Shown: positions 24,761 to 29,596, counted from the first letter of the stretch. The stretch: DNA of 64,000 nucleotides from Escherichia coli (GCF_003334815.1 NZ_QOWO01000008.1); one strand, 5' to 3'. Notes: generated by a model not told the origin, from the letters alone. A program made the numbers and translations.

Positions 24761-25621
24761 TTAATCCTTACTTAGCGCATACACCGTCTGACCACGCAGC
24801 GTGAAGCGGCGCTCAAGGTGGCTAAAGTTTTCAGAGTGACCCGCAAACAGCAATCCGTCGGGTTTAAGGAGCGGAACAAAGCGGCGCAAAATCTCCTGCT
24901 GGGTAGTTTGATCGAAGTAGATCATGACGTTACGACAGAAGATCGCATCAAACGGCCCCGGCACGGTGTACTGTTTCGCCAGTAGATTCAGCGGGGCAAA
25001 ATCAACATAGTTCGCCAGCTCCTGACGCACGCGTACCAGCCCTTCATGCGGCCCCGTCCCTCGCATGAAATACCGTTGCAGTTGCTGCGGCGTCAGGTTT
25101 TTCAACTCTTCATGGCGATAGATACCGCTTCTGGCTTTTTCCAGCACTTCGGTGTCGATATCACTGGCAAACACTTTCCAGCGTCCGGGCGCGGTGCCCA
25201 ATGTGTCAGCCAGCGTCATCGCAATGCTGTACGGCTCTTCGCCGGTCGAAGCCGCCGCGCTCCATACGCGATACTCGCCAGAACGGCGACGTGCGTGATC
25301 CGCGAGCAGAGGGAAATGATGTGCCTCACGGAAAAATGCCGTCAGATTCGTGGTCAGCGAATTGATAAACGCCTGCCACTCACCGCTGTGCTGATTAGAT
25401 TCCAGCAAGTTCAGATAATGACCGAAATCCGTCAGTCCCAGCGAACGCAAACGACGAACCAGTCGGTTGTAAACCATGTCGCGTTTATGGTCAGCCAGAA
25501 CGATCCCGGCTCGTTGATAGATCAATTGACTTATCCGCCGAAAATGCGCGTCGGAAAGCGCCAGGCGCTCGGTCATCTGTAACAATAAAGACGTTTGCCC
25601 ACAGGGCAGAGATGAAGTCAT
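24761..25621 (-). CDS. cheR: Chemotaxis methyltransferase CheR
   Basis: 286 aa. Confidence 0.97.
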
Positions 25622-25639
25622 AGCGCCTTCTCAATCACT

Positions 25640-27241
25640 TCAGGATACCACTGGCGCAATTTGTAACTGCACCGACTCATGTCGTGCTACTTCATGTTCT
25701 TCAAGGGTAAATACCGCCACACGCGACGAAAGATGGTCGGCCTGATTCGCCAGTTGTTCCGTTGCCACCGCCGCTTCTTCTACCAGCGAGGCGTTCTGCT
25801 GAGTCACCTGATCCATCTGGCTGACAGCCTGTGCAACCTGCTCAATCCCCCGCTGTTGTTCTTCCGACGCAGAGGCAATTTCTCCCATAATGTCGTTCAC
25901 GCGGGTCACCGAACTGACAATATCGATCATGGTCGCGGCGGCGTTATTCACCAGTTTCGAACCCTGCTGGACACGATTGACTGACTCTTCGATCAGCCCT
26001 TTGATCTCTTTTGCTGCCTGCGCGCTACGGCTGGCAAGATTGCGCACTTCACCTGCCACTACCGCAAAACCACGCCCCTGCTCTCCGGCGCGAGCCGCTT
26101 CCACTGCCGCATTCAGGGCCAGAATATTGGTCTGGAAAGCAATTCCGTCGATAACGCTGATAATGTCGCCAATTTTTTGCGAGCTGGTGGCGATCTCCTG
26201 CATGGTGTGAGTCATGGTACTGACCTGAACACCGCCCGCCTGCGCCGTTGTCGCGGCATTTTTTGCCAGTTCCGACGCCTGTCGTGCGTTATCGGCGTTT
26301 TGCCCTACCGTGGCGGTTAATTGCTCCATACTGGCGGCCGTTTGTGCCAGCGATGCCGCCTGCTGTTCGGTACGACTTGAGAGATCGTTATTGCCTGCGA
26401 CAATCTCCGCGATACCAATGTGCATCTCCTGGCTTCCCTTACGCACATCACTTACCGTCCCACGCAAAGCCTGCTGCATGGTCTTCAGACTGGCAAAAAT
26501 GGCGGTGATCTCATTACGACCATATACCGCAATCGGACGCGCCAGATTACCCGCAGCAATGCTGTCAAAATGGCTACCGATAATGGCCAGTGGTTGAACA
26601 ATCATCTTGCGCGTCCACCACAGCGCACTGCTGATGTAGATCGCCGCAACAATAATCATGCTGATAAACACCAGTGCCGAAATCTGATAGTTACGCTGGC
26701 TTTGCGCACTGGCGGCTTCCAGCACATGGTTGATCTCCAGCTGCCAGGCCTCAAAGTTAACGTCAAACGCATTCTGTGATCCCTGCACCGGCGCAGTGAG
26801 GAAATCCGAAAGTTGATTACTTTCAAGCCAGGTCGCCTGATGTTCGAGATCGTTGTGCCAGCGGGCAAAACTTTTCTCCGTCTCTTTTTGCAATCCCCTG
26901 ACGTGCTCGTTGCCCGCAGTCATCGCCATAAAACTTTTAAACAGCGTGGTGGATTGCGTCAGACTGGCGCGCGCCGTCGTCATCAACGTTTTAATGTCAT
27001 CCGCCGGATAGCTAAGTGCCGTCAGAGTGCCCGCTTTGTTCAGCGCGGTACTGGCCTGTAACATTACCGCCCGAGTTTGCGCTAATGCCGCACGTTGCTG
27101 ATTGCTCTGCTCGACCTGATTCAGTCGTTGCAAATCGTCGCGAAATGCCCAAAAAGACATGCCGTTACTGCCAATCTGCAAGATCCCGCAGAGAATCAAA
27201 ATTAAAAACAGCGTGGTCGAAATTCGAATACGATTAAACAT
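25640..27241 (-). CDS. tap: Methyl-accepting chemotaxis protein IV (dipeptide/pyrimidine) Tap
   Basis: 533 aa, MFNRIRISTTLFLILILCGILQ; conserved MCP signalling domain. Confidence 0.93.
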   Translation of the reverse strand: MFNRIRISTTLFLILILCGILQIGSNGMSFWAFRDDLQRLNQVEQSNQQRAALAQTRAVMLQASTALNKAGTLTALSYPADDIKTLMTTARASLTQSTTLFKSFMAMTAGNEHVRGLQKETEKSFARWHNDLEHQATWLESNQLSDFLTAPVQGSQNAFDVNFEAWQLEINHVLEAASAQSQRNYQISALVFISMIIVAAIYISSALWWTRKMIVQPLAIIGSHFDSIAAGNLARPIAVYGRNEITAIFASLKTMQQALRGTVSDVRKGSQEMHIGIAEIVAGNNDLSSRTEQQAASLAQTAASMEQLTATVGQNADNARQASELAKNAATTAQAGGVQVSTMTHTMQEIATSSQKIGDIISVIDGIAFQTNILALNAAVEAARAGEQGRGFAVVAGEVRNLASRSAQAAKEIKGLIEESVNRVQQGSKLVNNAAATMIDIVSSVTRVNDIMGEIASASEEQQRGIEQVAQAVSQMDQVTQQNASLVEEAAVATEQLANQADHLSSRVAVFTLEEHEVARHESVQLQIAPVVS

Positions 27242-27286
27242 CAACGCTCCCCATCAGGCGGCAATGACCGCGTTAGTAAATACTCG

Positions 27287-28948
27287 TCAAAATGTTTCCC
27301 AGTTTGGATCTTGTTCAGCAATTCGCAGTCGTGGCTGAGCCGGTGGTTGCTCACTGGCAGGACGGGATGGTGTTTGCGGTTTATTGGTGAGTGGGCTGGC
27401 TGCCAGACGGAACGCGGAAACTGCTTGCGTTAAACGACTCGCCTGTTCTTCCAGCGCAGCGGCGGCGGCAGCTGATTCCTGCACCAGCGATGCGTTCTGT
27501 TGCGTGACGCGATCCATTTCCGAAACCGCCAATGCGACTTGATCGATGCCACGGCTCTGTTCATCCGATGCCGATGCAATCTCGCCCATAATGTCAGTCA
27601 CGCGAGTGACAGCATTGACGATATTGTTCATTGTTTCCCCGGCGCTTTCGACCAGCACCGAACCGGTATCAACGCGTGAGACGGAGTCTTCAATGAGGGC
27701 TTTGATCTCTTTTGCCGCCTGGGCGCTGCGACTGGCAAGATTACGCACTTCACCCGCCACCACGGCAAAACCACGGCCCTGTTCACCCGCACGCGCGGCT
27801 TCAACCGCGGCATTCAGCGCGAGGATATTAGTCTGGAAGGCAATACCGTCGATAACGCTGATAATGTCGGCAATTTTCTTCGAACTATCGGCGATCTCAT
27901 GCATCGTTTTCACTACGCCATCCACCACTTTGCCGCCGTGCTGGGCGGTGTCGGAGGCACTTTGCGCCAGTTGCGAGGCCTGGCGGGCGTTATCGGCGTT
28001 TTGCTTCACTGTCGCGGTGAGCTGCTCCATGCTGGCGGCAGTTTCTTCCAGCGCGGATGCCTGCTGTTCAGTACGGGAGGAAAGATCGGTGTTGCCCGCC
28101 GCAATTTCACGGGTACCGGCATAGATGGCATCTGAACCTTCGCGGACATGAGTGACGGTGTCAGTCAAAGAGCGTTGCATATGTGAAACGCTCTGCGCCA
28201 GGTCGCCCATTTCACTGCGCCCGTCAATGGTCAGGGTATTCGCCAGGTTACCACCGGCGATTTCGCGAATGTGAGCAATAATTTTTGCCAGCGGAGTAAG
28301 CAACATACGGCGAATGCCGTACCACGCCACCAGCAGAATCAATACCACCACCAGCGCGATAACCGCCAGTTGCCACTGGGCAAATCGGTAATCATCTGCG
28401 TTGTCAGTGACGATATCGCGATACAGTTTTTCACTGCTGAGGGCGTACTGAGCAAACGCTTCGCCCATTGCATTTTGCATTCCCTGGGTTGGCTGAGCGA
28501 AATAAGCTCCAGTATTGCCATAATCTAGATAATCAATCAGTTCAGTTAACGCTGTGTAATAGTTTTTATATTTTTCATCAATATTACGACTGGTAGCGAC
28601 CATTTCAGGTAACGGTGCCATGCTTTTGAATTTTTTATAATGCGTCGCTGCCTGCGCCAATGTTTTCCTGGCGCTATCGAGCAATTCAACTTTGGCGTTA
28701 CTTTGTTGATTGGAGGAATCCATCATCATCCGTACCGCTGAACGACTCAGGTTAATGCGCGTTTGCAGCATTAAATCCCAGGTTGACGTCAGCTCGCCCT
28801 GCTGTTCCCGTAATTGATTGGAAACCACAAAGCTCTTCTGGCTATGGTGAAGGGAAGAAAAAAACAGACTGCCGGAAATAAGCTGTAACAGTGCGAATAC
28901 CCCCAGCACCATTACCAACAGCGTGACTACGCGGATACGGTTAATCAT
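27287..28948 (-). CDS. tar: Methyl-accepting chemotaxis protein II (aspartate) Tar
   Basis: 553 aa from [22 protein letters not shown]; C-terminal NWETF pentapeptide. Confidence 0.93.
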
Positions 28949-28979
28949 AAGGCACCTTCCTGAAAACAAGTTGATCTCG

Positions 28980-29006
28980 TTATCGGCAAGGAGGGGGGAA
29001 ACTTTA
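28980..29006 (-). promoter_or_regulatory. sigma28 (FliA) class 3 promoter of the tar-tap-cheRBYZ operon
   Basis: Minus-strand TAAAGTTT-N11-GCCGATAA, exact consensus. Confidence 0.8.
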
Positions 29007-29034
29007 TTGCTGATGCCACCCGCCGCGAAATTGA

Positions 29035-29064
29035 AATAAAAAACCCGATGCGCAGATCATCGGG
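29035..29064 (-). terminator. Rho-independent terminator after cheW
   Basis: cccgatgcgcagatcatcggg hairpin followed by T-run on minus strand. Confidence 0.7.
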
Positions 29065-29092
29065 TTCATTTCAATTGAGGAAATCGGGAGAA

Positions 29093-29596
29093 TTACGCCA
29101 CTTCTGACGCCGCGCTATCTAACAGCGCCATCTCTTCGCTGTTCAGCAGTTTTTCGATGTTCACCAGAATCAACATCCGGTCGCCCAGTGCGCCCAGTCC
29201 AGTGAGATATTCTGTTGAAAGCGTCACGGCAAATTCCGGTGCCGGACGAATTTGCTCCGCCGTCAATGAAAGCACGTCTGAGACGCCGTCAACCACGATG
29301 CCGACCACCCGCTGTCCGAGATTCAGGACGATAACTACCGTGTTGTCGTTATAGTCCACATCCACCTGGCTGAACTTAATTCGTAAGTCAACAATCGGCA
29401 CAATAACGCCGCGCAGATTCGTGACGCCTTTGATAAACGCTGGCGTGTTCGCAATCCGTGTTACCTGATCGTAGCCACGGATCTCCTGCACTTTCAGGAT
29501 ATCAATACCGTACTCTTCATCACCAAGGGTAAATACCAGAAATTCCTGGCCTGACGGCTCGCTGGCCAGCTTTGTTACATTCGTCATACCGGTCAT
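29093..29596 (-). CDS. cheW: Chemotaxis coupling protein CheW
   Basis: 167 aa. Confidence 0.97.

Follow-up and report, generated by a model that had tools for sequence, protein, structure and literature searches.

Natural Tar-Tap fusion alleles at the homologous signalling regions of the tandem chemoreceptor genes tar and tap of Escherichia coli

Results

The receptor genes tar and tap of Escherichia coli are very probably old tandem paralogues whose homology is kept by selection and which, on rare occasions, recombine in register at their longest islands of identity. According to the original prediction made for this DNA, a receptor could be fused or deleted through the homologous stretches of the two genes, and tar-tap hybrid alleles were to be sought in population data. 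Hybrid alleles were indeed obtained in three of the 5,426 complete E. coli genomes searched, where they represent two independent alleles. In all three genomes the product is an in-frame fusion gene of 1608 nt with its junction inside the homology, as the proposed capacity to fuse or delete a receptor had implied.

The stretch of DNA analysed, here called the window, comprises 64,000 nucleotides of an E. coli genome (GCF_003334815.1 NZ_QOWO01000008.1). It holds the chemotaxis operon, and its 21-33 kb region contains the genes flhB, cheZ, cheY, cheB, cheR, tap, tar, cheW, cheA, motB and motA, all of them on the minus strand, and the order cheW-tar-tap-cheR was given by the ORFs of the window as well as by RefSeq. 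The ORF calls reproduced exactly, both on the minus strand, the limits proposed beforehand for tap and tar (Table 1), and ATG is the start codon of both genes. Tar matched the NCBIfam equivalog PRK15048.1 with 1200 bits (cut-off 900) over its full length (1-553), and Tap matched PRK09793.1 with 1181.9 bits (cut-off 903) over the span 1-533. Both proteins contain the Pfam domains TarH, HAMP and MCPsignal, located in Tar at residues 1-169, 212-262 and 325-482, respectively. The C-terminal pentapeptide of Tar is NWETF; the C-terminus of Tap is ...QLQIAPVVS, without NWETF. On these sequence features, namely the absence of NWETF and the position of its gene between tar and cheR, Tap fits the low-abundance type of receptor.

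The region 25400-29200 of the window was matched in 5,426 of 5,426 complete E. coli genomes, and strains M217 and GYB01 were 100% identical to it. The tar/tap signalling core had no megablast match in 21 of the 5,426 genomes, from which the tar/tap receptor genes are presumably wholly absent. A length variant was observed in strain E2855, whose tap gene has 1605 nt, 3 nt more than that of the window (L015, 341-1945). Long ORFs (106-192 aa) with a high content of Ala, Ser and Arg were present on the antisense strand of tar and tap, at 27546-28124 (+), 25890-26210 (+) and 26420-26779 (+); we take them to be by-products of the codon composition of the sense strand, not genes. Promoter, terminator and Rfam scans revealed nothing within tar or tap of relevance to the homology of the two genes. 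Outside them, in the cheW-tar intergenic region, an Rfam C0465 RNA match was recorded at 28996-29073 (+) with 111.6 bits (gathering score 40); it lies antisense to the che genes and overlaps a terminator-like hairpin at 29041-29067.

Table 1. Positions in the window of tap, tar and the segments that they share
Feature	Positions	Strand	Basis or remark
tap, methyl-accepting chemotaxis protein IV, 533 aa	25640..27241	(-)	ORF and translation; RefSeq annotation of identical DNA
tar, methyl-accepting chemotaxis protein II, 553 aa	27287..28948	(-)	ORF and translation; RefSeq annotation
tar-tap intergenic spacer, 45 nt	27242..27286	(-)	gone in fusion alleles
Homologous core, tap copy (methylation helices and signalling hairpin)	25782..26407	(-)	single blastn match; repeat families D1, D2, spacing 1701
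Homologous core, tar copy	27483..28108	(-)	blastn, repeat search, run lengths
tap codons for the 56-residue identical run (hairpin tip)	26000..26167	(-)	protein alignments
tar codons for the 56-residue identical run (Tar 361-416)	27701..27868	(-)	protein alignments
24-nt exact run, tap copy; crossover interval of hybrid allele A (ET474, PEC389)	26145..26168	(-)	run lengths, diagnostic sites
24-nt exact run, tar copy	27846..27869	(-)	run lengths, diagnostic sites
18-nt exact run, tap copy; crossover interval of hybrid allele B (ETEC4088)	26286..26303	(-)	run lengths, diagnostic sites
18-nt exact run, tar copy	27987..28004	(-)	run lengths, diagnostic sites

A conserved signalling domain has been recognised in E. 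coli chemoreceptors since the 1980s and is textbook knowledge. The two peptide motifs that had been quoted as common to both receptors were found in Tar and in Tap, in the translations and in the protein alignment. The proteins are 78.7% identical over 202 residues (Tar residues 288-489), and their longest run of identical residues, DIISVIDG...AAKEIK, extends over 56 positions at the tip of the signalling hairpin, a stretch that is near-invariant across all five E. coli receptors, including Tsr, Trg and Aer. The description of the shared stretches as near-identical was thus borne out for the protein (78.7%, 56-residue run) but not for the DNA, with 72-74% identity and a longest exact run of 24 nt.

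At the DNA level, the extended segment that a comparison of the two genes had been expected to reveal was present as one block of about 630 nt, at an identity of only 72-74%. It was returned by blastn as a single match between the two copies of the core (74.4% over 634 columns, E 1.7e-112), and megablast gave no match of tar to tap. The ungapped in-register identity of the core (25760-26420) was 72%, reaching 90% in the best 60-nt bin. The longest exact runs had 24, 18 and 16 nt, and no exact word of at least 28 nt was detected; a longest run of 24 nt is not unusual at such conservation (P ~0.08, codon columns shuffled). The register offset between the copies, first put at about 1.6 kb, was measured as 1701 nt (3 x 567), and it is therefore in frame; the two genes have the same orientation, on the minus strand. 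The homology of tar and tap is far above chance.

For comparison with receptors encoded elsewhere, tsr, trg and aer were taken from MG1655 and the five receptor genes were aligned by codon. In the core, the adjacent pair tar-tap showed 73.6% nucleotide identity, 78.7% protein identity, a codon identity at identical residues of 0.528 and a longest run of 24 nt. The corresponding values for the unlinked pair tar-tsr were 77.9%, 86.6%, 0.543 and 28 nt. Because the tar-tsr values are the same or higher, adjacency has not raised the likeness of tar and tap above that of an unlinked pair.

These values bear on the possibility that ongoing gene conversion between the tandem copies maintains their similarity. 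The two genes are adjacent, lie in the same orientation and have a 630-nt alignable block in common, and at identical residues they agree in codon more often than the 0.394 that codon usage by itself would give, all of which speaks for conversion; however, the unlinked tar-tsr pair has the same or a greater excess, together with a higher nucleotide identity. Furthermore, in a small sample of eight diverse E. coli alleles, the base of the paralogue occupied at most two consecutive sites out of 183 diagnostic sites, and the tar-tap identity of the core within genomes was constant, at 72.0-72.5%, across diverse lineages. With tar and tap no more alike than tar and tsr, and with no tracts in eight alleles, the gene-conversion half of the original interpretation was not upheld, and we consider such conversion very unlikely. 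Since tsr is closer to tar and the eight alleles are without tracts, the similarity of tar and tap is attributed to purifying selection on an old duplication. We conclude that the likeness of the domains is due to selection on their shared structure; gene conversion has left no trace.

Fusion alleles were searched for with a synthetic Tar-Tap hybrid of 1500 nt, joined in the 24-nt run, as query against the 5,426 complete E. coli genomes; by this design, intact loci report the two halves separately and in-register fusions rank at the top. One-piece matches were obtained in strains ET474 (100%), PEC389 (100%) and ETEC4088 (97.3%), isolated from frog faeces in China, pig faeces in Korea and pig faeces in Belgium, respectively. 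In each of these genomes a single gene, annotated as 'tar', lies between cheW and cheR. ET474 and PEC389 carry the same allele, here designated allele A, and are identical over 6.5 kb. In allele A, a single switch from tar to tap occurs between positions 27870 (tar) and 26144 (tap) of the window, that is, in the 24-nt run. In allele B, from ETEC4088, the switch occurs between positions 28005 and 26285, corresponding to the 18-nt run. The fusions switch cleanly and only once at the diagnostic sites, and each parental part has 0-2 further mismatches. The probability that two independent crossovers fall in exactly the two longest runs is ~0.002 under uniform placement across the core; a preference of crossovers for the longest exact runs is based on no more than two independent junctions (n = 2). 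Independent assemblies also carry the exact fusion proteins, which were recovered on 71 and 28 contigs and are entered in 140 and 58 blocks of the collection. The gene context of these contigs is constant, with all the genes from flhDC to flhE (surrounding 20 kb) present.

In the protein encoded by allele A, residue 417 is the first to differ from Tar, since the crossover lies inside the 56-residue identical run, and 42 differences from Tar are present within residues 1-520. The allele B protein turns Tap-like at residue 326 and differs from Tar at 60 positions. Both fusion proteins end in ...QLQIAPVVS and are without NWETF. Their scores against the Tar model were 1049 and 1004 bits, above the cut-off, with model positions 1-523/524 of 553 only being covered. 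Since both pass this cut-off, the fusions are annotated as 'tar'.

Allele A was found on two upstream haplotypes, with ~80 differences in the 10 kb upstream (flhDC, motAB, cheAW; L016 vs L017, 1-10192) and only three differences in the 8 kb that lie downstream, counted from the last difference inside the gene. The two haplotypes could reflect recurrent formation of the fusion at the 24-nt run, or flanking recombination or transfer between lineages. As a separate observation, one genome with hybrid A has a 1-nt indel at the place of flhB, where no flhB was called (L018, about 15681); to judge from this indel, the strain may be non-motile.

A duplication would yield the reciprocal Tap-Tar junction; a synthetic query for this junction matched no record at 95% identity or more. 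Three records were found at 90-95% identity, ranked below ordinary matches, and are probably truncated alignments.

Coverage of the locus was below 80% in ~1,100 of the 5,426 genomes. These ~1,100 genomes, at 64% coverage, were at first suspected of carrying fusions; this was ruled out, as they have a deletion inside tap and an intact tar. The deletion, of 1374 nt, is common to ~1,060 of the 5,426 complete genomes, including UTI89, S88 and APEC O1. It spans about 25749-27107 (L001, 1816-1967), and an imperfect direct repeat of 12 nt, TCGRCCTGATTC, marks its ends. In the genomes that carry it, tar is intact and the remnant of tap is annotated as a pseudogene. The commonest natural loss of tap is one that involves no tar-tap homology. 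Uropathogenic E. coli have been reported to be without Tap, according to a secondary summary (PMC3559539, summarising Lane 2006), and the 1374-nt deletion fits this reported absence.

Another candidate, strain 673, ranked high against the synthetic hybrid and was rejected as a fusion, since it carries an in-frame deletion of 222 nt inside tar. This deletion, at about 27568-27789 and between the imperfect repeats CCACGGCYCTGTTCAYCCG, removes roughly Tar residues 394-467. The product has 479 aa, and its annotation is that of an intact 'Tar ligand binding domain-containing protein' (L009, 4388-5827). Strains PI24 and 472, also among the high-ranking matches, resembled strain 673 in match span and annotation in the search with the synthetic hybrid.

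In another reading, the homology is a passive relic, with a DNA divergence of 26-28% blocking exchange in nature. The lack of any exact word of at least 28 nt is in its favour, as is the fact that the dominant natural deletion of tap uses a short repeat inside tap. Against it stand the two independent natural in-register fusions, which have their junctions inside the homology and occur in many assemblies; the relic reading is extremely unlikely and is refuted by them, unless the fusion assemblies are artefactual. That the fusion genes are such artefacts, with two paralogues collapsed as short-read assemblers can do with repeats, is likewise extremely unlikely, given that the copies are only ~74% identical and far too different to collapse, that the fusions lie in the complete circular chromosomes of three strains from three different countries, that identical fusion proteins appear again on the 71 and 28 contigs, and that each fusion has one clean switch at the diagnostic sites with hardly any other mismatches (0-2 per parental part).

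Discussion

In the mechanism that we propose, the cytoplasmic methylation and signalling domains of the receptors have a shared structure under purifying selection, the hairpin through which they contact CheA and CheW and assemble into trimers of dimers. The outcome is a pair of in-frame direct repeats of ~630 nt, with 72-74% DNA identity, 1701 nt apart and bearing short perfect islands, and it is at the longest of these islands that rare in-register recombination between the copies would take place. Such an event deletes 1701 nt, made up of the 3' end of tar, the spacer and the 5' half of tap. The surviving gene encodes the Tar sensing domain, transmembrane segments, HAMP and first methylation helix, followed by the distal signalling domain and the C-terminus of Tap.

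The recombination itself may follow either of two routes: slippage or annealing without RecA, or RecA-dependent exchange at a minimal length of exact identity. In E. coli, RecA needs perfect identity over at least about 23-27 nt for efficient exchange. The longest run common to tar and tap (24 nt) lies at the lower edge of this minimum, and its flanks are ~25% diverged. A RecA-independent route for the fusions is equally possible.

The function of the fusion receptors can be inferred because NWETF is the docking site (tether) for CheR and CheB and because neighbouring receptors in arrays help each other. As predicted from its composition, a fusion receptor would probably keep the sensing of aspartate and maltose and lose the dipeptide sensing of Tap. 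If the NWETF tether is absent, its adaptation would be dependent on Tsr. The natural fusions could be neutral or mildly harmful losses which have spread clonally.

Exchange between tar and tap has precedents in the laboratory. Slocum, Halden and Parkinson (1987, J Bacteriol 169:2938) reportedly traced many spontaneous deletions in the tar-tap region to exchange between the homologous parts that encode the C-termini, with Tar-Tap hybrids as the result. As in the alleles described here, adjacent tar and tap genes in the same orientation had recombined in them, joining the N-terminus of Tar to the C-terminus of Tap. Those hybrids, however, are reported to have come from laboratory strains and phage constructs, whereas the present alleles come from wild isolates (frog and pig faeces), persist in many assemblies and have their crossovers placed within the 24-nt and 18-nt runs. 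Weerasuriya, Schneider and Manson (1998, J Bacteriol 180:914) are said to have engineered Tar-Tap and Tap-Tar chimeras. These chimeras represent the same kind of domain swap and are the basis for expecting Tar ligand specificity together with Tap-type adaptation in the fusions; their junctions were designed, whereas the present fusions arose by natural recombination.

Unequal crossover between tandem paralogues is also the origin of haemoglobin Lepore and of the red/green opsin hybrids. The likeness to the present fusions consists in an in-register exchange between diverged tandem genes, which yields a fusion gene and deletes the intervening DNA. The bacterial fusions differ from these cases in their much shorter islands of perfect identity and in that no reciprocal duplication was found. 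A natural loss of receptors has also been described in uropathogenic E. coli, for which the loss of Tap and Trg is given in a secondary account (Lane et al. 2006, J Bacteriol 188:5618, via PMC3559539). This is a natural loss of tap as well, but the deletion lies inside tap, with tar intact and no tar-tap exchange.

The homology of tar and tap and their tendency to recombine in the laboratory, the latter likewise since the 1980s, are already known. The small additions made here are the wild fusion alleles at the longest identity runs, their plain annotation as 'tar' and the absence of gene conversion. No account of natural Tar-Tap hybrids came up in a full-text search of the literature, and we rate the proposition that wild E. 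coli carry natural Tar-Tap fusion receptors undescribed in the searchable literature at somewhat short of an even chance.

The natural fusions provide a small data set on how short an identity suffices for exchange between diverged repeats. The naming of fusions as 'tar', together with the separate origin of the common loss of tap, is relevant to counts of the chemoreceptor repertoire across strains. If selection keeps the fusions, an aspartate receptor that lacks the NWETF tether, and whose adaptation is altered as a result, would exist in nature.
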